Below are positions 8,178-23,932 of a stretch of DNA of 43,891 nucleotides, one piece after another. This DNA is from Escherichia phage vB-Eco-KMB35. The DNA is taken from the sequence record OR525704.1. The stretch is one strand, 5' to 3'. The notes under the pieces were generated by a model that saw only the letters and a list, made by a program, of their open reading frames with translations, made no database searches and was not told the origin of the DNA. The number at the start of each line of letters is the position of its first letter. Position 1 is the stretch's first letter. The translations under genes were made by a program, and so were the position numbers.

Positions 8178-8690
8178 ATGCCGCTAATCGTGGAAACTGG
8201 GGCAATCGTCCCGAATGCCGACAGTTACATTAGTCTGGCTGACGCCCGCGCGTTAGCGGCTAATTATGGCCTTGAGCTACCGGAAGACGATACCGCCGCG
8301 GAGGTGGCCTTGCGTAACGGCGCCACTTATGTCGGGCTTGCGGAACCGCAGATGTGCGGTCGCCGGGTATCCGCCGAACAGTCTCTGGCGTACCCACGTA
8401 CGGGAACAACACTGAACGGCTTCACTGTAGCGGATAATGATATTCCGTCGCAGTTAATCCGGGCGCAGGTAATCGCCGCTGTTACATATGGCGCAGGAAC
8501 TGATGTTCGGGCTAACTCTGATGGGCGTTCCGTGCAGACTGAGCGCGTAGAAGGCGCGGTGACCGTGACATACTTCAACAACGGCAACAGCGGAGCTACA
8601 ACTGCGATTACCGCCGCGGACGACGCTTTACGCCCGTTACTGTGCAGCGGTCTTAACAATGGCTTCTCATTTAACGTGTACCGGGGTTAA
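8178..8690 (+). CDS. Head-tail connector / adaptor protein (putative)
   Basis: 170 aa; position between head and tail genes. Confidence 0.45.
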   Translation: MPLIVETGAIVPNADSYISLADARALAANYGLELPEDDTAAEVALRNGATYVGLAEPQMCGRRVSAEQSLAYPRTGTTLNGFTVADNDIPSQLIRAQVIAAVTYGAGTDVRANSDGRSVQTERVEGAVTVTYFNNGNSGATTAITAADDALRPLLCSGLNNGFSFNVYRG

Positions 8691-8692
8691 AA

Positions 8693-9307
8693 ATGGCGAA
8701 AACTAAGGCAGAGATGTTTACCCTTATCGGTGCAAATCTCCCCGATAACACTACCGGACTTATTACCCCCGCTGCATTGCGTGAGGTAATGACGCAGATG
8801 GCGGACTCACCTATTTACGCCACTCCAGGCGTTAAAGAGGTTGAAGTTCTCCGTGCCGCGTCGACAGTAGCACAAGCGCCTACCGCGGTAGATACGGCAT
8901 TGCAGGTATCGTTCGGCTCTGCGAAGGGCAGCGCATCTGATCCGGTAATGATTAATGCTGCGGGGCTGGTTACGTTCAACACCGCAGGTAACTATGCCGT
9001 TCGCATCAAGTTACAGGCGGGCCGCACTGGCGCTAGCGGAACCTCTATCTTGCTATCGCGCATTCTGGTTAATGGCGCACAATACGGCTCTCCCGCAGCA
9101 ACTAAGCTGGTAAGTGCTGATATTACAATCCCGATTGAATCCCGCGTCGTTATTAACCCAACAGCAGGCCAGACATTCGCAGTTCAGATTATGCGAGATA
9201 GCGCCGGGACTAACTTCGGCGGCGTATATCCGCAAGCGGCTACCGTAACCGCATGGGGTACTGCACCATCCGCACTACTGGTTATTTCGAGACTGGAGGC
9301 TGCGTAA
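8693..9307 (+). CDS. Structural protein of unknown function
   Basis: 204 aa, tightly packed in structural operon. Confidence 0.45.
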   Translation: MAKTKAEMFTLIGANLPDNTTGLITPAALREVMTQMADSPIYATPGVKEVEVLRAASTVAQAPTAVDTALQVSFGSAKGSASDPVMINAAGLVTFNTAGNYAVRIKLQAGRTGASGTSILLSRILVNGAQYGSPAATKLVSADITIPIESRVVINPTAGQTFAVQIMRDSAGTNFGGVYPQAATVTAWGTAPSALLVISRLEAA

Positions 9308-11875: not shown

Positions 11876-11904
11876 CTAAGGCCCCGAAAGGGGCCTTTTT
11901 TATT
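11876..11904. terminator. Bidirectional terminator ggcccc-gaaa-ggggcc followed by ttttttatt
   Basis: Perfect stem-loop between convergent major tail gene and minus-strand cassette. Confidence 0.7.
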
Positions 11905-12133
11905 ACTCATCAATGTTACTCCTGTACTCCCGTAACTTTTCCAGACTTTCAATTGCTTCCGCTAAGTCGGTTCCGGTGTCCTTGTGTCCACGTAAACCCA
12001 TGCACAATAGCTTCTTCAATGCGTGCTGTAACGCCGGGTCGCGGATGTCGAAAGCGCGGAGCACATCATAAACGTCTACTGTCATAGTGCTGCCGTGAGT
12101 GTTTGTCATTGTTCGGTTGTATTTTGAAGTCAT
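11903..12133 (-). CDS. Hypothetical protein (76 aa), last gene of reverse cassette
   Basis: ORF overlapping stop of upstream gene (12130), ends at terminator. Confidence 0.5.
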   Translation of the reverse strand: MTSKYNRTMTNTHGSTMTVDVYDVLRAFDIRDPALQHALKKLLCMGLRGHKDTGTDLAEAIESLEKLREYRSNIDE

Positions 12134-13260
12134 CCCAGCATCTCCGGTGAAATAGTTAAACGTGCGACCTCGCCATATTCGGCGCTATAAGTAATTACAT
12201 TTGCACTACGGCCTGACATCCACCCGCCGCGGGAGGCATAGGCGTCTTTAGCCGCTAAGGTGCGGTGTTGCTCAACAATCATGTTACGGCTTTCTACAAT
12301 CTTCTGGTGGTGCAGGTGGCCTACGTGGGCGTAGCTATAGACACTCTCACCGAACGCTTTGCGGAATTTGGCAATCATAACCGGTTCGATAGCATCGAAT
12401 CGCGCCTTATGCCCGTGGTGAAAGAACAACGTCGTTTTTCCGTGTTGCACCATCTTGTAAACATCCGGCGACGTATCGACAATCACTCGGCTGTCGTTCG
12501 AATATAAAACTGTGAACATTTCAGCCAGCCATACAGAGCCTACAGGGTCATGGTTCCCCTGTACGATAAGCAAGCGAACATTTTTATGTTTAACCAGTGC
12601 CATATCTACAACACGGCGTACCATACGAATCATGTAGCGGACGAGTTTCTGGTAGCGAGTGTCTGCGTCCAACACGTGACGCGACTCAGGTGTAACGGCA
12701 TCCAGACTATCGAAGTGCGCGAAATCACCCAGCAGGTTAATAACTCCTGTTCCTGCATCCGGTGCTTTCTGAAACGCCGCGTCGAACCAACGAGAGAACA
12801 GGTCTTCCGCAATCTTTATATCCCAGTCGTCGCCGCTCTCGTCGGCCCAGGCAAGCATACCGAGATGGAAATCAGATACCGTGTAAAGATTGAGTAGCTT
12901 GTCGTCGCGTTTGGCTCGAGTCGCTTTAGCCGGCGCAACTGGCGTAATCTCTGACTTCATGCCTTCAATCACGGCTTTCATCAACTCGACCTGACGTTCA
13001 GCGTCGGTGTCTGTCTTAACCCATTGCAACTTAGTATTGCCGAACTCGTCTACCAGAGACGACGTCCCTTTAATCTTGTAGCCGTCTGGGACAAGGTGGC
13101 TAACGTCACGCCCGTGGCCTACACCTTTCTTAGCCAGCTTCGCTTTACGGATACGAATAACTCGGTCTGAGATGCCGTATTTACGGGCGATGTCTACATT
13201 CTTCATCCCGGCGTTCAATTCTTCCTGTAACTGTTCGTCGGTTATTTTCTTCTGGGCCAT
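12130..13260 (-). CDS. HTH-domain / calcineurin-like metallophosphoesterase fusion protein
   Basis: 376 aa; N-terminal HTH (NVDIARKYGISDRVIRIRKAK); phosphoesterase motifs SDFHLG, LGDFAHFD, GNHD, HHGH, GHLHH in canonical order. Confidence 0.6.
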   Translation of the reverse strand: MAQKKITDEQLQEELNAGMKNVDIARKYGISDRVIRIRKAKLAKKGVGHGRDVSHLVPDGYKIKGTSSLVDEFGNTKLQWVKTDTDAERQVELMKAVIEGMKSEITPVAPAKATRAKRDDKLLNLYTVSDFHLGMLAWADESGDDWDIKIAEDLFSRWFDAAFQKAPDAGTGVINLLGDFAHFDSLDAVTPESRHVLDADTRYQKLVRYMIRMVRRVVDMALVKHKNVRLLIVQGNHDPVGSVWLAEMFTVLYSNDSRVIVDTSPDVYKMVQHGKTTLFFHHGHKARFDAIEPVMIAKFRKAFGESVYSYAHVGHLHHQKIVESRNMIVEQHRTLAAKDAYASRGGWMSGRSANVITYSAEYGEVARLTISPEMLG

Positions 13261-13325
13261 GCTTACTTCCTCGTGTTTAGGATTTGTCCTATTTAACCAC
13301 AGTGGATTCCTTTAAATAAAGGCAA

Positions 13326-13652
13326 CTATTTACTTTCTGCGCCTATCGCCCACCCTGTCATTACCATTTGCAGACGGGTGGCTGTCAGTAGGCTATAGAA
13401 AGCATCTCCGTTTTTCTCTACCGAACGTATCACTGTGTAGGTTACGGCCTGCGGGGGTAGGCCCGATTTACCAACCTCCACGGCGGCCTCACACTCGCGA
13501 ACTGTAGAGTCCTTGAACGCCTTTACAATAGTAGGGTCGGCTTTATCAAGCACACCAGAAGTCATAAGAACAGATTCACTAAATACCTGTTCGCACGGGG
13601 CTCCAAAAGTAGCAAAAGACATAAAACCCAGAGCTAGTACTAATTTACGCAT
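13326..13652 (-). CDS. Secreted/periplasmic protein (108 aa) with N-terminal signal peptide
   Basis: MRKLVLALGFMSFATFGA signal-like N-terminus; promoter element directly upstream. Confidence 0.55.
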   Translation of the reverse strand: MRKLVLALGFMSFATFGAPCEQVFSESVLMTSGVLDKADPTIVKAFKDSTVRECEAAVEVGKSGLPPQAVTYTVIRSVEKNGDAFYSLLTATRLQMVMTGWAIGAESK

Positions 13653-14233: not shown

Positions 14234-14595
14234 AAGCGCTGTATGAATTTGCGCAATGGTGCTTTGTCGACCGCCACAAACGTAAGCAATTCGACGACAT
14301 CGCGGCGGGCCACCAGGCGGCTTTGATTGCAATGGGCGTGATTAAAGAACCGCAGATGAAAGAAGCGACGGGGCCGGAATGCCCCGTTTCTCTTATCGAC
14401 GTGTTCGAGAAATACCGTGCCATTAAATTCCTACAGCGCGAAACAGATGATACTATCGTTATAATCCCGCGCGATGCGCTCAAATGGCAAGATTTGGTAG
14501 CGTTTCGTGATGTCGCCGGTTACGGCATAAGTTTGTTCGAAGCCGAGGTTATCATGGGCTTAGACGGAATATTTGAGGGCAGAGAAGATGGCTGA
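14215..14595 (+). CDS. Tail assembly chaperone frameshift extension (GT-like), reached by -1 frameshift near GGAAAAG 14224..14230
   Basis: Frame-1 ORF open from 14215 to 14595, overlaps chaperone 3' end and ends at tape-measure start; slippery A-rich run. Confidence 0.45.
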   Translation, partial: ETLGKVKALYEFAQWCFVDRHKRKQFDDIAAGHQAALIAMGVIKEPQMKEATGPECPVSLIDVFEKYRAIKFLQRETDDTIVIIPRDALKWQDLVAFRDVAGYGISLFEAEVIMGLDGIFEGREDG

Positions 14596-16900
14596 TACGG
14601 CTTCCCTAATTGCCAGAGTAAAAACAGAAGGCGCTGATGTAGCCGCTAAACAGCTTGACGCTATGGCGGCATCCGCAGACCGTGCGGACACATCCGTAAA
14701 CAAACTAACGCCGGATGTTAATAAAGTAAACTCCGCTACGTCTAAAGCGGCTTCTGACGGTTTCGCTAAATTCCGTAACGCCGCCGGGCAGGTAGGCTTC
14801 CAGGTGCAGGACATGGTCGTCCAGTTGCAGTCCGGTACGTCAGCATTTGTGGCAATAGGCCAGCAAGGTTCGCAACTTGCGGGTGCTTTCGGCCCTGGTG
14901 GTGCTGTGCTTGGGGCCGTAATCGCACTAGCGTCGGCTGTTGGTGGAGTACTGTATAAATCACTAACCGAAGCAGAAGGCAGTTCAAAAGACCTCGAAGC
15001 CGCGCAGAAACAGTTAAAAGATACTTTCCAGCAAACGGCATCTGGCTCTCTCGAGCTGACAGACGGCCTTATCCAGCTTACCCAAATCAGCAGAGAAGCA
15101 GCGGAGACTCAGCTTGCTCTGGCTAAGGCTAACGCGGACCTTATCGCGCAGCAAACCGCTAAAGCTGTTCGTGAAGATGCCGAATCATGGGAAACGTGGA
15201 AAGCCTCCACGGCATCGGCGATTAGCCAGTATGATGCATTAGTCTCTAAGGGCGCAGATGTAGGCGACACATTAGAAAAACTCGGCGGCACTTACGAGGG
15301 CAACATCGTAGGCGTCAACATGCTGGCGCAGAATATCGCGGAGCTTAGCAGTAAGTTCGGAGTTAACCGTGACCAGGCGCTGGAGATGATAGCGGCGCAG
15401 AGTGCGTTTAACAAAGAGCCAACCGCCGAGAATGCCCGTCGCATCGCCGATGTGTTTACCGACTGGCTCGGTAACACAAAACAGTTGAACCCGGAACTTA
15501 TCCGCCTGACGGACAACGCCAACAAGAACGCCACGGCACTGGAGAACGCGGAGAAGTCAGCAAACGCGGCGGCAGAGGCCCAAAAGAATCTTGGTCGCAA
15601 CGTCAACTCAACCACGCAGAGATTCCAGGAACAGAACGAAGCTATCGTCAAAAACCAGCAAATCGCCATCTTAAGCGACCGTGAGCGTATCCGGGCGCAA
15701 GCTGAACTTGATAAACAGGCGTTCGCTAAACGTGAAGCCGTCACCAAAGAACAGATAGCCGCGTATAATGCGGCCCGCGACGCGGAAGCGCAGCAAGACA
15801 TCGCCCGCATTGACAAGACCGAGAAAGAGAAGGCCGACCGCGAGGCTAAATCGAACGAGGAACGTCTGGCGGCACAAGCCAAACGCGAAGAAACAGCGGC
15901 ACAACGTCAGAAAAAAGCGGCGGAAGATTTCCTGGCTACTGTCGACCGCACAACCGGAGACGAAATTTCACGTATCACAGCGGCAGAAGAACAGAAACTG
16001 GCGAAACTTGAAGAGTTCAACCGCGCCGGAACGATAAGCCAGCAGCAGTACGAAAACGCCAAAACTCAAATTATGCTCACCGCCGAGCAGGCCAGACAGG
16101 AAGAACTGGATAAGAAAAGAAAAGAGCAGCAGGAAAAGCAGCAGAAAGGCGACGACTTCATGGCCCAGATTATGGGTCAGAACGCCGCTGAGCTTGAGCT
16201 TCTCGACATCCAGGAACAGCAGAAACTGTCGGTAGCAGATAAGTACCGCGAGCAGGGTTTGATTAGTGAGAAGCAGTATCAGGCTGCGCTTAATGCCATC
16301 AACGAGCAGTACGCCACGAAGCGTGCCGACGCAACGGCAACGGCCTTCGGTAACATGGCCTCAAACATCGGTTCGGCTTTGGGCGAGGCTTCTGGCGCGT
16401 ACAAGGCATTCGCTATCGTGCAGGCCACTATAGCCACGTACACCGCGGCTATTGAGGCGTATAAGTCAACAGCGGCTATCCCTGTAGTTGGCCCGTTCCT
16501 GGCTCCTGTAGCTGCCGCTGCTGCCGTTGGGGCGGGTATGGCGCAGATTTCCGCTATCAGGTCCGCACGTGAACAGGGCGGACAGTTATCCGCGGGGCAG
16601 GCTTCAACCATCGCCGAACGCGGTAAACCAGAAGTTATCATGCCCGCTGGTGCGTCACGTGTACGCACCGCACAGCAGATGAAAGAAATTATGGGGCAAA
16701 ACGGGTCTTCTTCCGGACCGTCTAATGTTACTATCGTAAACAACACGAGTTCTCAAATCGGCAACGTATCCACTGAGCAAGATGATGAAGGCCGTTTGCG
16801 TATCATCATCGAGGAGCAAGTGGCTGCCTCTTTGCAGAACAGTAACAGTAAGATTAGCAAGGCCCGCAAGGCCACAAGAAATGCGCCGGGGTTTAAATAA
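14588..16900 (+). CDS. Tail tape measure protein
   Basis: About 770 aa, long Ala/Gln/Glu/Lys-rich helical protein after chaperone pair. Confidence 0.8.
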   Translation: MADTASLIARVKTEGADVAAKQLDAMAASADRADTSVNKLTPDVNKVNSATSKAASDGFAKFRNAAGQVGFQVQDMVVQLQSGTSAFVAIGQQGSQLAGAFGPGGAVLGAVIALASAVGGVLYKSLTEAEGSSKDLEAAQKQLKDTFQQTASGSLELTDGLIQLTQISREAAETQLALAKANADLIAQQTAKAVREDAESWETWKASTASAISQYDALVSKGADVGDTLEKLGGTYEGNIVGVNMLAQNIAELSSKFGVNRDQALEMIAAQSAFNKEPTAENARRIADVFTDWLGNTKQLNPELIRLTDNANKNATALENAEKSANAAAEAQKNLGRNVNSTTQRFQEQNEAIVKNQQIAILSDRERIRAQAELDKQAFAKREAVTKEQIAAYNAARDAEAQQDIARIDKTEKEKADREAKSNEERLAAQAKREETAAQRQKKAAEDFLATVDRTTGDEISRITAAEEQKLAKLEEFNRAGTISQQQYENAKTQIMLTAEQARQEELDKKRKEQQEKQQKGDDFMAQIMGQNAAELELLDIQEQQKLSVADKYREQGLISEKQYQAALNAINEQYATKRADATATAFGNMASNIGSALGEASGAYKAFAIVQATIATYTAAIEAYKSTAAIPVVGPFLAPVAAAAAVGAGMAQISAIRSAREQGGQLSAGQASTIAERGKPEVIMPAGASRVRTAQQMKEIMGQNGSSSGPSNVTIVNNTSSQIGNVSTEQDDEGRLRIIIEEQVAASLQNSNSKISKARKATRNAPGFK

Positions 16901-18300
16901 TGAGCGACTTATATTTCCCACGTAGCCTTAAGCCGGTGGTATCGAAAGGCTACTCAATGACCAGACGCAACAACGTCTGGAGTGTAGATTTAGCCGGTGG
17001 CGGAGTGCGTCAAGGCCGTGACACGTATTATGATGTGTTCCCAATAAGCGTAACCCTGATTACATCTGCACTAGGGCGACAGGCGTTCCTGTCGTTCCTT
17101 GAGAAAGTGGACGGCGGCGCGTCAAGTTTCTGGATGGCGCATGACTTCGGCATGGGTATTGAAGATTATCAGGTAACCATCACGTCCACCATCGCGGAGT
17201 CCACCGAAGACGGCATTAACTGGACGATTACTTTCACGGCAACCGCCGAGAAATCCCCGTTCCAGGACCAAGAGAACCAGTGCCTGATTAACAATCTTCC
17301 AGATTTGTACGGTTGTTACGGGGATTGTCTGGGTAGTTTCCTGAAAATATACGCGAACTACGAGACTACGTTCCCGCGCATCTGGAGCAATGAAGGGCCT
17401 GCCGGGCATCCACCGATTAACCTTCTGGCGTCGACTCTTGATAGCCGCATTGTTTACGACGGGCCACAGGTTTACTACATCAACCGAAATGGCAATCTTG
17501 TGCAGTCCGCCACTAATGAATGGCCTCTTACGTTTATCGATGGAGTTGCTGTTGGGCGTGTACCACCGGAAAAGGCGGCTACCAATGTGGTAGAACATTC
17601 TAACAACTTACTATCTACATCATTTTCACGTACCAGAACAACAACCACGGCGAGTTCTTTGGCGTTATTCCAAGAAACTTATGCTGCTAAATTAACCGCA
17701 ACGTCGGTATCAGGTAACCATTATATAAACCAGATGGTGGCTCCCGCACCGGGAACAAGGTATTCTCTTAGCGCTATCATGAAAGCAGATGAGTACCAGT
17801 CGGCAGCGGTAGTCATCGGCAACCGAGCCGCTTTAGATAATTTCCAGTATGCCTATGTTGACTTAGCCTCCGGCTATTTGATATCAGGCGACACCTCAAG
17901 GTCGTTCGTAAGCAATCTTGGTGGTGGGTGGTATCACGTTTCAATGTCAGCGGACACTAACGACTCCGGCGGATTGATTTATTCGCAGATAAACATGTTG
18001 TCGCCGTCTAACTCCCTCACCTTCACAGGGGATGATGTCAGTGGGTTCAATGTGGCTCTAATTCAATTGGAGGCATCGCCATTTGCCACATCGCCAATAG
18101 TAACCGATGCGTCACCGGTAACCAGACACACGGCATCGGCAAAAGTAGCAATGAACGGCGCAACAAGCATCGACATTACCTATTCAGACGGCTCCGTGAT
18201 AAACGTTCAGGCTGTTGACGGTTACGCCTCCATACCCCAAGCGGATTCGGCGTGGGGTAGTAAGTACATCACTCGTATTGATTTTAATGTGGACGGTTAA
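16900..18300 (+). CDS. Distal tail protein, lambda gpM-like N-terminus with about 340-aa C-terminal extension
   Basis: N-terminal FLSFLEKVDGGASSFWMA resembles gpM FLEEHGGWKSFLW region (recollection); follows tape measure. Confidence 0.5.
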   Translation: MSDLYFPRSLKPVVSKGYSMTRRNNVWSVDLAGGGVRQGRDTYYDVFPISVTLITSALGRQAFLSFLEKVDGGASSFWMAHDFGMGIEDYQVTITSTIAESTEDGINWTITFTATAEKSPFQDQENQCLINNLPDLYGCYGDCLGSFLKIYANYETTFPRIWSNEGPAGHPPINLLASTLDSRIVYDGPQVYYINRNGNLVQSATNEWPLTFIDGVAVGRVPPEKAATNVVEHSNNLLSTSFSRTRTTTTASSLALFQETYAAKLTATSVSGNHYINQMVAPAPGTRYSLSAIMKADEYQSAAVVIGNRAALDNFQYAYVDLASGYLISGDTSRSFVSNLGGGWYHVSMSADTNDSGGLIYSQINMLSPSNSLTFTGDDVSGFNVALIQLEASPFATSPIVTDASPVTRHTASAKVAMNGATSIDITYSDGSVINVQAVDGYASIPQADSAWGSKYITRIDFNVDG

Positions 18301-18303
18301 TTT

Positions 18304-18819
18304 ATGAGCCAGGAATCTGTAGAAGCCGCCTATCGCCGTAAGCTGGCCTCAAATCCCGACGGCGAGATGGACTACATCACGTTGCAAATCAGCCACCCGT
18401 TGTTGTCAAAGACGTACTATCTTGTTCGTGGGCTACAGGAACTTACGGCGACACTGGAAACCGGCGAAACTATCACATTCGAACCCACCCCGATGGAGGC
18501 GTCGGGGGCCGCTAACAACAGTGATATGGACCAGACGACCACGTTTACTTTACCGGATATCCTCAATCAACTTGATGATGAGATGGATAAAATCCCAATG
18601 GGCAATACGGAGTTGCCGAAGTTCGTATTTCGCCGTTACGTCAGCACCGACCTGTCTTATCCGGCGGACGGCCCTGTCGTGTACGAGTTACAGGCCATCA
18701 ACCAGGAGAAGGGCGAGTTCTCTGCGGATGTCGGTACACCTATGCTGAACCAACGAAGCACTGGTATACTGATGACACCTAAAGAGATACCGTTATTACG
18801 CGGCCTGTTGACTACATGA
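18304..18819 (+). CDS. Minor tail protein
   Basis: 171 aa, gene order in tail-tip module. Confidence 0.45.
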   Translation: MSQESVEAAYRRKLASNPDGEMDYITLQISHPLLSKTYYLVRGLQELTATLETGETITFEPTPMEASGAANNSDMDQTTTFTLPDILNQLDDEMDKIPMGNTELPKFVFRRYVSTDLSYPADGPVVYELQAINQEKGEFSADVGTPMLNQRSTGILMTPKEIPLLRGLLTT

Positions 18820-19181
18820 ATATTAACGACTACACGGGAATACCTTACGACTTTCGCAAACGTAATTGCTGGCATCACGTGCGCATTGTCCGCGCGGATG
18901 CCGGGTTAGAAACCCCAGCGTTCGACGTTGCAAGCCCAACGGCGATTAACGAAGCGTTCGACGAAGGACATCGCAACACGAAGGGACTTACAAAAATTGA
19001 TAAGCCTGAAAACTTCTGTGCGGTGCTTATGGGGTATCGCCGCGGCGGTCGTATCGTGTGGCACGCAGGAGTTTACTTCGACGGGATGGTGAGCCATTGC
19101 GAGCTTGCTTCCCGTCAGGTACGGCTTGACAGGCTGGCGGATCTCAGAGACACGTACACGGAGATTGAATTTTGGCGATAA
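18816..19181 (+). CDS. Tail assembly protein with NlpC/P60-like Cys-His signature (gpK-like)
   Basis: 121 aa; conserved C and H residues (NCWHH, HAGVY, SHCE); gene order. Confidence 0.45.
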   Translation: MNINDYTGIPYDFRKRNCWHHVRIVRADAGLETPAFDVASPTAINEAFDEGHRNTKGLTKIDKPENFCAVLMGYRRGGRIVWHAGVYFDGMVSHCELASRQVRLDRLADLRDTYTEIEFWR

Positions 19182-21739
19182 TCCTGCACTACACGCGAAA
19201 CGCTGATGGCGCTTTCAACCGTACAAAACACGTCGGGATGCCGATGGAGTTTGTCGTTAACCGTATCCCGGACGGCGTTCCGGTACGCGTCTATCTTGGC
19301 GAGATTGGTGATGATACTGATGTTACAGACGACTTCGACGCGCTCAAAGACGAGGACGCCGTGTACCACATTATTGAGGGCGCTGGCGGCGGCATTGGCG
19401 ACGCCATCGGGAGTGTATTCAGTTTCATCCTTAAGCCAATCGCCAAATTGTTCGGGCTAAACACAGCGGCTAACGCTAATTATTCCGCTACCAACAATCA
19501 GGCTACGTCGCCTAACAACAGTCTCACCGACCGCTCAAACAAGCCACGACCTTATGAGCGTTCCTATGATATCTGCGGGACAGTGCAGACCATCCCCAAT
19601 GACCTGATGCAGACATATAAGGTGTTTAATGCCGCGGGTGCGCTTATTGAATATGCGTACTATGACGCCGGTCGAGGGTATCTGCATATTGAGGAAGACG
19701 GTGTAACTGAGGCAGATACCCGAATCAGCGAGATAACTGGCTCGTCGGTGACGGTGTATTCTCCTTACACTTCGCCGAATAACACCAGCACACCACAATT
19801 GCGTATCGGCGACCCTATAGACCAGAAATTGTACGTTACATTTAAAAACGCCGATGTCGATGGCGCTGTTCTTCCCGCCCCTAATGATATCGCTATAGAC
19901 GTGCAGGACTACACTGTCCAGCGGCAGGGAACAACCGGCGTTGTAGTAGGCGATGACGCTGGTTTCGATGAGTTTTTGGCGGTCGGGGACCTGGCATACT
20001 TCGATAACGTATATGCAGATACAACCCCAGGGTCTTTGGGTAATGAGGTTAACCTGGACGGGAGGTACACGGTTCTTTCGGTTAGTGAAACCACCCTTAT
20101 TGTGGACGTCAGTACAAATCAATCAGTATGGAACCAGCTAGGGGCGTCTGTGTGGTTTATAGGTGAAGAGGGTAACCATCTTATAGGCCCGGCGGACACT
20201 TACGCGGCTTCTCTCTCTGAATGGGCGTACATCACCCGCGGTACTGTCGACCGTGTTGTAGCCAATGTCGCCGCCAGCAACGGCATGTATAAATACAACG
20301 GCGACTATAACCGCGCTTCTGTGACGGTGGAACTGCAATACCAGATGGTCGACGAGTTGAAACAACCTGTAGGTGATGTATTTACCGTACAAGGAACCGT
20401 AACAGGCCGGAACACGGATTACACAGGGATTACTCTTTACGGAAGTTTACCAACTGCTTCCAGATTCCGCGCCCGTATGCGTCGTGTTTCTGACACCGAT
20501 AAAGATTTTGAAGGTACTGTTAGTGACGAGGTTACTTTCACTAATCTGTACGGACAGTCACTGGACACAACACCGCACTACGGCAACCGCACTACGGTGC
20601 ACTGCGCCCGTAAACAAACACCACGTGCGGCGGAGGTGTCCGAACCGGAACTGCGCATGATTGCTACTGAGATGTGTTACAAATACTTAGGCAATGGGGT
20701 GTTCGATACAGTAATGACCCCAAATACGCAGGCTGTGCAATCGCTAATCAGACTGGCGCGCGACCCGGCGGTTGGCAATCTGGAGCTGACAACAGCAAAC
20801 ATGGACAAGTTACTCGCCGTGCAGGAAGAAATCGAGTCCTATTTCGGAAGTAAGTTAGCAGGTCAGTTCTGCTACACGTTCGACGACTACGACACAACCA
20901 TGCAGGACATAGTTCAGACCATAGCGGAAGCCGAGTTTTGTACTGCGTACCGTAAAGGTGCGGATATTATGCTGCGATTCGACCGTCCGGTTGCAGGGCC
21001 TGAGATGGTGTTCACTCACCGTAGCAAAACTACCGGTACAGAGAAATGGACCCGCACGTTCAACGATTCGACAACCTACGATAGCCTGTCGTTCTCGTAT
21101 ATCGACCCGGATACTAACGTACAGGAAACGATTTATATCCCGGAAGAACTCGGAGCAAACACCGAGGAATATGAATCGAAGGGCGTACGTAACTATCAGC
21201 AGGCATATTGGCTGGCGTGGCGTCGCTACCAGCGCAACGCGTTAAGTAAAGTTGTCGTAGAGTTCGAAGCTACCGAAGAGGGGGCACTCGCTACACCGGG
21301 CGGCGTAATCAGCGTGGTTAAAGGCTCACGCATCGCGCCGCAGGATGGTTATGTTGTTGCCGTTAACGGGCTTACGCTTACGCTGTCTCAGCCAGTTACG
21401 TTTACCCCCGGAGACGACCACTCCATCATCCTCAAGAAGCGCGATGGCTCTGTGCAGAGTATCTCGGTTATCAAAGGAAGCCACGACCGCGAGGTGATTA
21501 TGCTCTCCGCGCCGGAAGAAGCAATCTACACGGGGAATAGCGCGCTAAAAACTGAGTTTTCATTCGGCAACGAAGCAAGGCATAATGCCCAGAAGATAGT
21601 TGTTTCTTCAATCGACCCCGGCGACGACCGCACGGTCAAGATTACGGGCTACAACTATGATGACGGATTCTATAAATACGACGGCGTCGCGCCATACGGC
21701 AGCGGTTTCTCCGACGGATTCAGCAATGGTTTTAATTAA
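19172..21739 (+). CDS. Tail tip / host specificity protein (gpI-like N-terminus fused to J-like body)
   Basis: 855 aa; Gly-rich GAGGGIGDAIGSVFSFILKP segment like gpI C-terminus; start uncertain (TTG 19172 or ATG 19238). Confidence 0.5.
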   Translation: MAIILHYTRNADGAFNRTKHVGMPMEFVVNRIPDGVPVRVYLGEIGDDTDVTDDFDALKDEDAVYHIIEGAGGGIGDAIGSVFSFILKPIAKLFGLNTAANANYSATNNQATSPNNSLTDRSNKPRPYERSYDICGTVQTIPNDLMQTYKVFNAAGALIEYAYYDAGRGYLHIEEDGVTEADTRISEITGSSVTVYSPYTSPNNTSTPQLRIGDPIDQKLYVTFKNADVDGAVLPAPNDIAIDVQDYTVQRQGTTGVVVGDDAGFDEFLAVGDLAYFDNVYADTTPGSLGNEVNLDGRYTVLSVSETTLIVDVSTNQSVWNQLGASVWFIGEEGNHLIGPADTYAASLSEWAYITRGTVDRVVANVAASNGMYKYNGDYNRASVTVELQYQMVDELKQPVGDVFTVQGTVTGRNTDYTGITLYGSLPTASRFRARMRRVSDTDKDFEGTVSDEVTFTNLYGQSLDTTPHYGNRTTVHCARKQTPRAAEVSEPELRMIATEMCYKYLGNGVFDTVMTPNTQAVQSLIRLARDPAVGNLELTTANMDKLLAVQEEIESYFGSKLAGQFCYTFDDYDTTMQDIVQTIAEAEFCTAYRKGADIMLRFDRPVAGPEMVFTHRSKTTGTEKWTRTFNDSTTYDSLSFSYIDPDTNVQETIYIPEELGANTEEYESKGVRNYQQAYWLAWRRYQRNALSKVVVEFEATEEGALATPGGVISVVKGSRIAPQDGYVVAVNGLTLTLSQPVTFTPGDDHSIILKKRDGSVQSISVIKGSHDREVIMLSAPEEAIYTGNSALKTEFSFGNEARHNAQKIVVSSIDPGDDRTVKITGYNYDDGFYKYDGVAPYGSGFSDGFSNGFN

Positions 21740-21751
21740 AGAGGACTCTAT

Positions 21752-23932
21752 ATGTCAAGCGGATGCGGTGACGTTTTAAGCCTGGTGGATTTACAAACCG
21801 CCAAGAAACACCAGATTTTCGAGGCCGAGGTTATCACCGGTAAAGCTGGCGGTGTAGCTACGGGTGCTGATATTGATTACGCAACTAATCAGGTTACGGG
21901 ACAGACACAGAAGACGTTGCCAGCCGTGTTGCGTGACGCCGGGTTCAGACCTGCGCCATTCACATTCGAAACAGGTGGGACTTTGGGCGTTAACGACGCT
22001 GACCTGGCGGTGTTGTGGCCAGGGCCATCAGGCGACGGCAACTATTATGCATGGAAAGGTGCCCTGCCAAAAACCATCCCGGCATCTTCAACCCCGGCGT
22101 CTACGGGCGGAGTAGGCCAGACCGCATGGGTTGCCGTTAGTGAAGCTGCATTGCGCCGTGATTTGGCCCTAAGCACTGGCGCAGGGTTAGTTGGGACAAC
22201 ATCCGGCAGGACCGTACAGGCAGAGTTTGACTACCGCAAGACTCAAGCAGCAAAAACAGAGATAAACATACTTGACTACCTTCCGGATAACGTGATCGCG
22301 GCGCTAAACGATGTTAACGCGTCAAAAGCTCTAGGAAGCGTAAGGACATACATTGAGCAGGCTTTAGCGGCAGCAACGAGCGCGAATATCGGTACGGGGG
22401 TTACTTTACGTTTCCCGGCTGGGTTCTTTTGGCTTGATTCTACTCTTAACCTACCTCGTAGGACGCGTATTATCGGGGTCTATCCAGAAACATATTTCAT
22501 GGCGCTCCCTAGCTTCACTGGCACTAACGTAATTGCTGGCGCTACAGGGCCTGCTATCGTCGCTATTGATAATTCAGGGCAAGACCCGTTTTATATTGAA
22601 GGTTTCCAGATAAACGCAGATGGTTCACAGCCGAATGTGGTTGGACTTCACATTGGCGGCTGCCGTAATGCTGTCGTCCGCCGGGTATCCGTATCCGGTA
22701 CCTTCGATGCTGGTGTTGTTATCCACCCTAAAAACGCAACATCTGGAGACGTAGAGAACCTTGAATTAAGCCATGTATGGACCTTAGGCGGGGGGCTTGT
22801 GCTCCGGTCTAATACCGCTATTACCCGCGGCAATTTAACAGGTCTGTCATTCCGGGATTGCATGTTCTTCAGTACAATCGACAACAACCCATCATGGGCG
22901 ACATCCGGTAACCCTAGTATTAGGTTCTCCTGCCATGTAGACCGACAGATTTTTGCATGTACATTCGACCGCGTTGGCTGGGCGAGCCGTGCGACATACG
23001 CCATCTACTCAGAAAGTCTTGCTGGAGATACCGCGTCAGACGTAAAAGGTTTCCGAGATATTCATTTCTCAGATTTCCACGGAGAAGCGCATAACGCCGA
23101 CGGCTCTCTAACATCAGATTGTACGTTCGCTCTTCTCACAAAGATGCGGAACAGCACATTTACTAACATCCAACGCTCCGGCGCTGTGACTCGCGGCGGT
23201 ATTATCATGGATGGGTGCGAATACGTAACATTCAACTCAGTATCGTTTGCGGACCCTAATATCACAACAGGAACAACGGCACCCATTTGTGTATACCAGA
23301 ACTCCACCAACAGATTTAATAGATTTATTAACTGTGACTTAACAGATGCAACCGGAAGTATGTTTGATTTAGCTGGTTGGACTATAGCCCAGAGTGTTAT
23401 GTATTATTTTAAAGGTTTATTTTGGGATGATAGCGGAACCAGTATATGGGAAAGCGAACAGATGTCTTCTACGCCGCGAGTACTGTTTCACCGAGCGGCG
23501 CTAAACCAAAGTAACGGCAGCGGATACCCACAGCAGTCGGGGGTGACTATGGCGACATCGGGTGATAACTTGCAAGTTACTTTCGCGAGAGACGCCACTA
23601 CAAAACTGTTTACTATCCCAATAACTTCGGCGTCAGGAGCTTTTAATAACCAAGACCGAGTGTATGTCTTATTCCGCCATCAGTTCACTAGCTATGGAAC
23701 TAATACGGTTGTAAAAATTGGACTAGGAAACTCTTATGTAACCATATCCCCTCAGAGTGGGAGTGATTATTTTGCGGCTATTAGCCTTAAAAGAAGTCAG
23801 GCTACAAGTTTTAACATTCAAGTTATATACAGCGGTGCATCTGCCGATTGTGGAATTCTAATTCGAGATTTAGTAATTTCTGACAGGATGCCGTGGGCGC
23901 CAAACTTCACCAAATCCTTACTTTGCGATTAA
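21752..23932 (+). CDS. Tailspike / tail fibre receptor-binding protein, probable beta-helix (possible depolymerase)
   Basis: 726 aa, last structural gene; body rich in repetitive G/N/T/S beta-strand-like segments. Confidence 0.55.
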   Translation: MSSGCGDVLSLVDLQTAKKHQIFEAEVITGKAGGVATGADIDYATNQVTGQTQKTLPAVLRDAGFRPAPFTFETGGTLGVNDADLAVLWPGPSGDGNYYAWKGALPKTIPASSTPASTGGVGQTAWVAVSEAALRRDLALSTGAGLVGTTSGRTVQAEFDYRKTQAAKTEINILDYLPDNVIAALNDVNASKALGSVRTYIEQALAAATSANIGTGVTLRFPAGFFWLDSTLNLPRRTRIIGVYPETYFMALPSFTGTNVIAGATGPAIVAIDNSGQDPFYIEGFQINADGSQPNVVGLHIGGCRNAVVRRVSVSGTFDAGVVIHPKNATSGDVENLELSHVWTLGGGLVLRSNTAITRGNLTGLSFRDCMFFSTIDNNPSWATSGNPSIRFSCHVDRQIFACTFDRVGWASRATYAIYSESLAGDTASDVKGFRDIHFSDFHGEAHNADGSLTSDCTFALLTKMRNSTFTNIQRSGAVTRGGIIMDGCEYVTFNSVSFADPNITTGTTAPICVYQNSTNRFNRFINCDLTDATGSMFDLAGWTIAQSVMYYFKGLFWDDSGTSIWESEQMSSTPRVLFHRAALNQSNGSGYPQQSGVTMATSGDNLQVTFARDATTKLFTIPITSASGAFNNQDRVYVLFRHQFTSYGTNTVVKIGLGNSYVTISPQSGSDYFAAISLKRSQATSFNIQVIYSGASADCGILIRDLVISDRMPWAPNFTKSLLCD

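Follow-up and report, generated by a model that had tools for sequence, protein, structure and literature searches.

Why should a siphophage carry, just behind its tape measure gene, a tail protein far longer than its lambda counterpart gpM, and what might the extra length do? We addressed this question in Escherichia phage vB-Eco-KMB35 (OR525704.1), taking the whole stretch of 43,891 nucleotides as our window; all coordinates are positions in it. A first-pass annotation of the same letters had reported an open reading frame (ORF) for a 466-amino-acid (aa) protein and another for an 855-aa protein in this tail-tip region, in a layout that we confirmed. It had described both proteins as unusual, the first as gpM-like with a long extension and the second as a fusion of gpI- and gpJ-like parts, and had raised the idea that such extensions carry carbohydrate-binding modules (CBMs). 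Our best explanation, which we consider probable, is a Kagunavirus-type tail tip in which the distal tail protein (DTP) bears an optional, exchangeable, lectin-like appendage and the hub protein joins an I-type module to a J-type body. The word 'unusual' did not survive: both architectures are the norm in hundreds of relatives, the tail tip of Shigella phage Sf11 has been solved (PDB 9OCC; Subramanian, Dover and Parent, J Virol 2025), and I-J fusions were described in 2006. Both proteins are family-typical and largely explained by that 2025 cryo-EM structure and the 2006 comparative study; what we add is the domain identity of the appendage, the precise boundaries of its cassette, and natural pairs of phages that share a host but differ in having it, namely Bas77-80 against Bas81 and long against short Kagunaviruses.

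The region 16900-21739 is 94-96% identical in DNA sequence to Bas70-76 of the BASEL collection, 590B, NTEC3 and XY2, and DNA similarity to it occurs in 448 phage records. The window, 95-96% identical in DNA to Bas70-76, is a Kagunavirus (Guernseyvirinae) and carries that group's standard siphophage tail-tip module. Within this module, position and homology mark the 466-aa protein as the predicted DTP: its gene lies directly after the tape measure gene, with DUF1833, NlpC/P60 and TipJ-like genes downstream, and its residues 158-464 match Sf11 gp17 (PDB 9OCC) with E 2.5e-87 in a PDB sequence search. Sf11 gp17 is a distal tail protein present in six copies per virion. In the published model, its residues 3-165 build the ring and a single helix, which packs into a bundle with three helices from the N-termini of a tailspike trimer, and the authors described the remainder as a 'large extra appendage' of unknown function (PMC12724387). 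The family of the window protein comprises at least 487 proteins of 446-472 aa, and the conservation pattern in an alignment of 30 members (A1) divides it into five segments (residues 1-124, 125-162, 163-225, 226-405 and 406-466):

16900..18300, + strand: ORF of the 466-aa DTP
16900..17271, + strand: putative ring domain, DTP residues 1-124, found as a few sequence types in A1
17272..17385, + strand: adaptor segment, DTP residues 125-162, presumed docking site for the tailspike N-terminus
17386..17574, + strand: Pro/Gly hinge (SNEGPAGHPP) and near-invariant N-terminal flank, DTP residues 163-225 (A1)
17575..18114, + strand: hypervariable beta-sandwich core, DTP residues 226-405, a CBM-like GTA_spike_fiber domain
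18115..18300, + strand: near-invariant C-terminal flank, DTP residues 406-466 and stop codon (A1)

The last three segments form the appendage, and its core provided the clearest indication of function. Residues ~230-395 were predicted by AlphaFold2 as a confident all-beta sandwich (predicted local distance difference test, pLDDT, 83-94), so the independently folded domain proposed for the extension was borne out at the level of structure prediction. The model has the beta-jelly-roll fold expected of CBMs. In Foldseek searches of the PDB it resembled CBM families 4, 6, 16, 22, 35 and 61 (probability 1.00; target-normalised template modelling (TM) score 0.48-0.69), as well as the lectin-like domains of phage tailspikes. 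Residues 224-409 belong to the 'phage head spike fiber domain' of NCBIfam (NF048003 GTA_spike_fiber), with a score of 102.7 bits where the cutoff is 36 (E 3.3e-29), and a PDB sequence search matched residues 223-430 to Rcc01080, the head spike fibre of the Rhodobacter capsulatus gene transfer agent (RcGTA), with E 4e-10. Rcc01080 is the RcGTA protein that bears this domain and binds capsular polysaccharide (PMC10218006; PMC7296036): in its tagged form it showed 100% binding to wild-type capsulated cells and ~4% to a capsule-less mutant (PMC10218006). The predicted fold and this homology both favour the earlier CBM idea, and glycan binding by the appendage is what we infer by analogy. A surface polysaccharide-modifying or -degrading enzyme, such as an esterase or a second depolymerase, would seem very improbable. 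Some of the Foldseek matches do lie within glycoside hydrolases and tailspikes, but these are their non-catalytic beta-sandwich modules; Pfam and NCBIfam scans of the appendage returned no catalytic family, and A1 contains no invariant polar residue within the core.

The distribution of the appendage was examined in 41 related IMG/VR loci and in a collection of 50,697 phage records. In 21 of the 41 loci the DTP is a short form of 164-166 aa that consists of ring domain and adaptor only and ends ...FPRIWDPMQ just past the adaptor; no copy of the appendage was present within the fetched flanks of these loci (up to 8.5 kb). Bas81, an O16-dependent Skatevirus, likewise encodes a short form, of 157 aa. 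In the collection, 498 records contain the ring domain, 361 of them named as Salmonella phages, and 133 contain the appendage, with no Salmonella phage among these 133. The appendage is missing from all 361 Salmonella phage records that have the homologous ring domain, whereas about half of the Kagunavirus records from E. coli have it. One IMG/VR locus (L017) has an internally deleted core, the DTP gene is split in two in two GenBank phages, and phAPEC8-like myoviruses carry related modules in their tail-fibre or tail proteins. By this distribution the appendage is optional and dispensable. We also noted its stem or core in tail proteins of Erwinia, Pantoea and Acinetobacter phages, alongside the phAPEC8-like ones.

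Where present, the appendage is modular. Compared by segment (ring, adaptor, N-terminal flank, core and C-terminal flank, in that order), the window protein is 19, 22, 89, 94 and 85% identical to that of Bas77, a Skatevirus; 19, 26, 85, 35 and 85% identical to that of Sf11; and 97-98, 100, 89-94, 26-32 and 79-97% identical to those of three other Kagunavirus-type loci. The N-terminal flank keeps 85-94% identity across genera. In DNA alignments, the similarity of the appendage to both Sf11 and Bas77 starts at 17413. Over a 9.4-kb module, the window and Bas77 have only 17413-18272 (860 nt, 93.5% identity) and 108 nt of the tailspike gene in common, and with Sf11 only the two appendage flanks align. 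Against a Kagunavirus of another allele, the unaligned gap at approximately 17579-18078 gives the core breakpoints, and against a short-form locus similarity ends at 17346 and returns at 18304. These boundaries suggest that the appendage was transferred between phages, and across genera, as an 860-nt cassette.

The same alignments bear on whether the appendage might be purely structural, a spacer or brace without a ligand that places the six tailspike trimers or bridges six-fold to three-fold symmetry. The extreme conservation of the flanks would suit such a part, and the authors of the Sf11 structure credit gp17 with both symmetry bridging and tailspike docking (PMC12724387). In that structure, however, ring and docking helix lie within residues 3-165, and the short DTPs keep just this ring and docking part together with the same conserved tailspike N-terminus. 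A brace would also have no need for a core that falls to 26-35% identity between otherwise 97%-identical proteins, and the pairing of one core with two unrelated tailspike types indicates that it is not adapted to the tailspike body. We therefore regard a brace as rather improbable.

Given an exchangeable core, does its allele follow the host surface? The window allele (at least 87.8% identity) was found in exactly 16 of the 50,697 records, the next best match being 37% identical. These records (Bas70-76, Bas77-80, two records of NTEC3, SCS92, 590B and XY2) span two genera and two unrelated types of tailspike, with receptor domain type A in Bas70-73 and Bas77-80 and type B in the window, Bas74-76, 590B, NTEC3, SCS92 and XY2. 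All eleven BASEL phages among them are strictly dependent on the O16 O-antigen (PMC11990801). Core cassette and tailspike receptor domain lie ~3.5 kb apart with genus-specific genes between them, so the two were acquired separately. A role of the appendage in host range is what we infer, and we hold only tentatively, as a possibility somewhat short of even, that it may serve as a serotype-specific lectin cassette and give these phages a second receptor-binding device, one that can be exchanged independently.

A number of observations count against this stronger form. DUEC01 has a 98%-identical type-A (O16-type) tailspike with a different core, the Sf11-type receptor-binding domain is seen with two different cores, and Bas81 depends on O16 without having an appendage at all. 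In the IMG/VR loci, cores and tailspike domains reassort largely independently; a pairwise association between them gave an odds ratio of 7 (p 0.017), from pairs that are not independent of each other. Moreover, 11 of the 16 records come from one collection and study on one host, and sampling from one collection combined with local recombination could be the source of the O16 pattern. A second case of an allele found across genera was sought with the Sf11 core, which proved unique in the collection. We also considered strict pairing of core allele and tailspike and rejected it on the basis of DUEC01, of L027 compared with Sf11, and of rbd1, which occurs with both var1 and var4. The link between core allele and host is a lead, not a result.

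The BASEL phages also help to judge whether the core might instead bind a non-glycan secondary receptor, for example an outer-membrane protein, and supply the terminal binder that a short J-type hub lacks. The 855-aa hub is indeed without the C-terminal receptor domain of its 1132-aa lambda counterpart, and hypervariable cassettes are typical of any receptor binder. Nevertheless, fold and homology favour sugar binding, Bas70-80 are wholly O-antigen dependent (PMC11990801), and phages with short DTPs infect without the appendage, Bas81 doing so on the same host, so it cannot be the obligatory terminal binder; we consider a protein receptor quite improbable. Each of the three rivals, brace, protein-receptor binder and enzyme, fits the fold, the hypervariability or the natural short forms less well than a lectin-like appendage does.

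We turn to the part of the DTP that the short forms retain, and to its presumed partner:

21752..23932, + strand: 726-aa tailspike

The adaptor contains C128, C139 and C143, ends in FPRIW, and sits where Sf11 gp17 has its helix for the bundle with three tailspike helices. Adaptor types vary together with the types of tailspike residues 1-52 (21752-21907). This genus-specific anchor reads MSSGCGDV... in all Kaguna/Jersey-type loci, those with long and those with short DTPs alike; in the Sf11 type it reads MAT(T/V)PTN... instead. Beyond a sharp exchange breakpoint at residue ~52, the rest of the tailspike (21908-23932) swaps between genera: Bas72 and Bas77 are 88% identical there, and the window and Bas81 83% in amino acids. 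The tailspike has a Pfam Tail_spike_N match, and its gene is 88% identical in nucleotides to those of Bas74-76 and 84% to those of Bas81 and Bas96; Bas96 is a podovirus, and its similarity extends over 71% of the gene. The receptor-binding part is, from its sequence, of the type of Bas74-76 and Bas81, phages whose O16 dependence has been demonstrated (PMC11990801). The same paper states that the tailspike is, for the most part, the sole receptor-binding protein of these phages, and the 466-aa protein goes unmentioned (PMC11990801).

Three cysteines are found in 36 of 40 adaptors of the Kaguna/Jersey type (39 loci and the window), the third at position 143 or 146 depending on lineage; in the window they are encoded within 17281-17331. 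Cys5 of the tailspike (21764-21766) is invariant in every recovered Kaguna/Jersey-type tailspike, and the Sf11-type partners have no cysteine in either adaptor or tailspike N-terminus. Each adaptor would face three chains of the tailspike, so it is conceivable that disulfides or a metal site lock the tailspike to the ring. The BASEL paper reads its micrographs as three distal tailspikes on J-like fibres (PMC11990801). Cryo-EM of Sf11 instead gave six tailspike trimers on the DTP (PMC12724387), and the conserved adaptor-anchor pair of the window fits the latter.

The description of the DTP N-terminus as gpM-like stood in part. The length estimate of about four times gpM was right (466 aa is 4.3 times the 109 aa of lambda gpM), and the likeness holds for gene position after the tape measure and would extend to the ring-protein role that gpM has (PMC10721106) and to fold; there is also a short common motif, SVTL...SFLE..GG..SF. 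It does not extend to significant sequence similarity: blastp against gpM gave E 2.9 across 29 residues; hhalign, which here and below compares profiles built on shallow family alignments, gave P 0.008 and a probability of 5%, which is not significant; and no Pfam family, PF05939 Phage_min_tail included, matched the 466-aa protein at E<=0.1. Lambda gpM also has neither adaptor nor appendage. For the ring domain itself, the AlphaFold2 model of residues 1-125 is of low confidence (pLDDT 23-66); Foldseek matched it to the Sf11 DTP chains 9occ_C/D with E 8e-4 to 1.5e-3 and a target-normalised TM score of 0.41-0.42.

The second question posed by this locus concerns the 855-aa protein, for which we distinguished the following elements:

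19172..21739, + strand: ORF of the 855-aa hub
19172..19381, + strand: ubiquitin/ThiS-like beta-grasp (gpI-type module), hub residues 1-70
19382..19462, + strand: Gly-rich stretch and hydrophobic segment (GGGIGDAIGSVFSFILKPIAKLFGL), hub residues 71-97, analogue of the gpI hydrophobic plug region
20246..21676, + strand: TipJ-family hub body (baseplate hub protein 2), hub residues 359-835

The ORF opens with a TTG that overlaps the preceding stop codon and has GGAG 8 nt upstream, and the first predicted beta-strand (residues 2-9) depends on this start. A later start at M23 or M25, used in some database entries, is less likely in view of the ribosome-binding site and that strand. The frame continues unbroken to its end, with no frameshift between the I-like and J-like parts, and a single ORF is kept in 756 homologues; the single long ORF of the first-pass annotation was therefore real. 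Among the homologues is Sf11 gp14 (828 aa), which is detected in virions and was identified as baseplate hub protein 2, with three copies per virion and a model from residue 81 onward (PMC12724387). The hub matches gp14 over its full length (E 4e-25), and its body matches NCBIfam NF040662 TipJ_rel (390.6 bits against a cutoff of 140, E 8e-117). Matches to lambda gpJ (blastp E 3e-4) and to the Pfam models Phage-tail_3 (17.6, below its cutoff of 23) and FNIII-A_GpJ are weak.

Residues 1-70 were predicted to fold as beta-beta-alpha-beta...beta (AlphaFold2, pLDDT 76-83), a ThiS/MoaD-like beta-grasp with a conserved terminal Gly, followed by a Gly-rich linker. The beta-grasp ends in ...DAVYHIIEGAGGG, and the hydrophobic stretch IGDAIGSVFSFILKPIAKLFGL lies downstream. 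The protein had been said to begin with a Gly-rich, gpI-like segment: the Gly-rich stretch exists at residues 70-81 (GAGGGIGDAIGS), after the beta-grasp rather than at the very start, and the gpI likeness holds in fold and position and not in sequence. In lambda, the gpI beta-grasp ends in ...GAVIHIVPRVAGAKSGG, followed by a Gly/Ala-rich hydrophobic region, and in the lambda tail gpI residues 135-223, with hydrophobic residues 137-152 included, form a trimeric plug of the tip lumen, the N-terminal part being unseen (PMC10721106).

We read the 855-aa protein as a gpI-type module and a J-type hub in one ORF, a reading that rests on fold, order of elements and neighbourhood because the Lambda_tail_I family is unmatched and the profile comparison is not significant. 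The sequence results tell against it. Pfam PF06805 Lambda_tail_I matched none of eight gpI-like queries at E<=10 (the hubs of the window and of Sf11, each trimmed to its first 140 aa, and six relatives scanned at full length), with lambda gpI as a control at E 1e-28. Comparison of the hub N-terminus with gpI by hhalign was not significant (probability <1%), and in a BFVD search ubiquitin-like proteins came up only with E>0.1, while neither a 'tail assembly protein I' nor any significant match outside the hub family appeared. A search of protein representatives with hub residues 1-130 found no stand-alone gpI-like relative among its 12 matches, nine of which were of the same family and three HEAT-repeat false positives. 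The Sf11 hub N-terminus gave 7 matches in a homologue search, and a related-locus search with lambda gpI recovered only lambdoid copies of 99-100% identity, useless for profile building.

With so little linking the sequences, the beta-grasp could be unrelated to lambda gpI, convergent or recruited from another ubiquitin-like protein, which would make 'I-J fusion' a misnomer. We think this unlikely. The elements follow one another as in lambda (beta-grasp, Gly-rich and hydrophobic stretch, J), the gene lies downstream of an NlpC/P60 K-like gene, and the Sf11 version of the hub, a homologue of which is named 'MoaD/ThiS family protein' by NCBI, weakly matches the same MoaD model as gpI does. Precisely this variant, TAPI-TAPJ fusions with a JAB-less NlpC partner, was described for the TAPI family by Iyer, Burroughs and Aravind (2006), and the neighbourhood expected of TAPI, beside a K-type NlpC/P60 gene and fused to a J-type hub, is what the window has.

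The genes around these two proteins complete the module:

14573..16900, + strand: tape measure protein, 775 aa from the first TTG (phrog_1538, E 1e-197; Bas72 annotation)
18304..18819, + strand: 171-aa ORF, DUF1833
18816..19181, + strand: 121-aa ORF, NlpC/P60-type

The 171-aa protein matches Pfam PF08875 DUF1833 (E 2e-16) and phrog_396, and its homology and position, that of lambda gpL and Sf11 gp16, suggest an equivalent of baseplate hub protein 1. It contains no Cys, which excludes a gpL-type Fe-S site. The 121-aa protein (phrog_329) has no Pfam match. It has invariant residues C18, H83 and H94, which hhalign placed on the catalytic motifs of gpK residues 61-151 with a weak score (P 0.03), and some public records name it peptidoglycan endopeptidase. 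It would be a minimal NlpC/P60-type protein like the C-terminal half of lambda gpK, without a JAB domain, and we take this NlpC/P60-only protein to be the counterpart of gpK. In Sf11, no NlpC/P60-type gene is annotated between gp16 and gp14 (8592-8964), gp15 being a small ORF on the reverse strand; annotation may have missed the gene, or Sf11 may have lost it. Bas77 and Bas81 have a 156-aa minor tail protein annotated at the position of this gap. Against lambda gpM, gpL, gpK and gpI, blastp of the four tail-tip proteins gave nothing significant.

All tail-tip genes lie on the + strand and are closely packed or coupled, the ATG of the DTP gene overlapping the tape measure stop codon as TAATG. 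PHROG matches of the region's ORFs, which reach E 7e-116 and 2e-248, show that these are genuine conserved genes rather than chance ORFs. Opposite-strand ORFs at 17122-17598 and 19535-20122 are wholly contained in conserved genes, those of the DTP and the hub, and Bas72 has neither annotated as a gene. The tape measure ORF opens with TTG at 14573, and the start annotated in relatives is an ATG five codons later, at 14588 (MADTASL...). Farther upstream, a minus-strand gene block at 11903-13652, ahead of the tail chaperones, splits the + strand tail genes; its counterpart in Bas72 is annotated as a DNA repair exonuclease and small hypothetical genes.

Set beside known systems, the window resembles the Sf11 tail tip most closely: the gene order after the tape measure is the same, the C-terminal DTP appendage is homologous and of equal length, the hubs are homologous over their full length and begin alike with a beta-grasp, a Gly-rich stretch and a hydrophobic segment, and a tailspike gene lies downstream. 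It differs from Sf11 in a ring and adaptor too divergent for detection by hidden Markov models, in an adaptor with three Cys where Sf11 has an acidic helix with salt bridges, in core allele, tailspike anchor and receptor-binding domain, and in its annotated NlpC/P60 gene. With lambda gpI, gpJ and gpK it has in common the beta-grasp, Gly-rich linker and hydrophobic segment beside a J-type hub and an NlpC/P60 protein; unlike lambda, it joins the I- and J-type parts in one ORF, with a much shorter hydrophobic region and no JAB peptidase. In phages that infect lactic acid bacteria, Dieterle et al. in 2017 reportedly described 'evolved' distal tail proteins whose insertions bind carbohydrate. Like these, and like T5 pb9 and RcGTA g12 with their oligosaccharide-binding (OB)-fold domains (PMC7296036), the window DTP would be a ring protein that doubles as carrier of sugar-binding modules. 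The modules of evolved DTPs, however, sit inside or replace the C-terminal galectin/OB domain, whereas the window's domain is of another family, appended past a hinge, optional, exchanged as a cassette at its core, and found in a phage of a Gram-negative host. Rcc01080 belongs to the same domain family, is likewise mostly beta and flexible, and acts as an accessory, non-obligatory capsule-binding adhesin (PMC10218006; PMC7296036); it is a separate protein held on capsid pentons by a 10-residue N-terminal peptide, in contrast to a domain fused to the DTP.

Taken together, these comparisons suggest a working model. By analogy with Sf11, six copies of the DTP would form a ring below the tail tube, and residues ~125-162 of each would hold one tailspike trimer by its first ~52 residues. 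Past the hinge at residue 163, every copy would bear an appendage of ~300 residues pointing off the tail, in which a conserved stem (residues 173-225 and 406-466) holds the hypervariable beta-sandwich (226-405). Domain identity and mode of evolution suggest that this core may act as a non-enzymatic lectin that reversibly binds a strain-specific surface polysaccharide. Binding could increase or accelerate adsorption and keep the tip oriented during O-antigen cleavage by the tailspikes, with the appendage as an accessory rather than an essential receptor binder, evolving by cassette exchange also across genera. Three DUF1833 proteins and three TipJ-family hubs would make up the tip cone, again as in Sf11, and the gpI-type module of the hub might plug the tip lumen, as lambda gpI does, or contact the membrane. 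Some results speak against parts of this model: the ring domain has no sequence match to any solved DTP (hhalign against the Sf11-type ring domain and hidden Markov models against the PDB), the model of the whole DTP has a mean pLDDT of 58 and is poor outside residues 230-395, and the structural matches to CBMs have modest E values of 1e-4 to 5e-3. Because natural short forms exist, any role of the appendage would be auxiliary.

The function of the appendage is directly testable with public phages. If it is a lectin, it would be an overlooked determinant of host range or adsorption in phage therapy candidates against uropathogenic E. coli, and would offer a ready-made swap site for engineering. 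Kagunavirus- and Skatevirus-type siphophages are at present described with a single receptor-binding protein; if the lectin cassette is real, those that depend on O-antigen would have two glycan-recognition systems, and selection by the host surface would then account for the allele that O16-dependent phages from two genera have in common.

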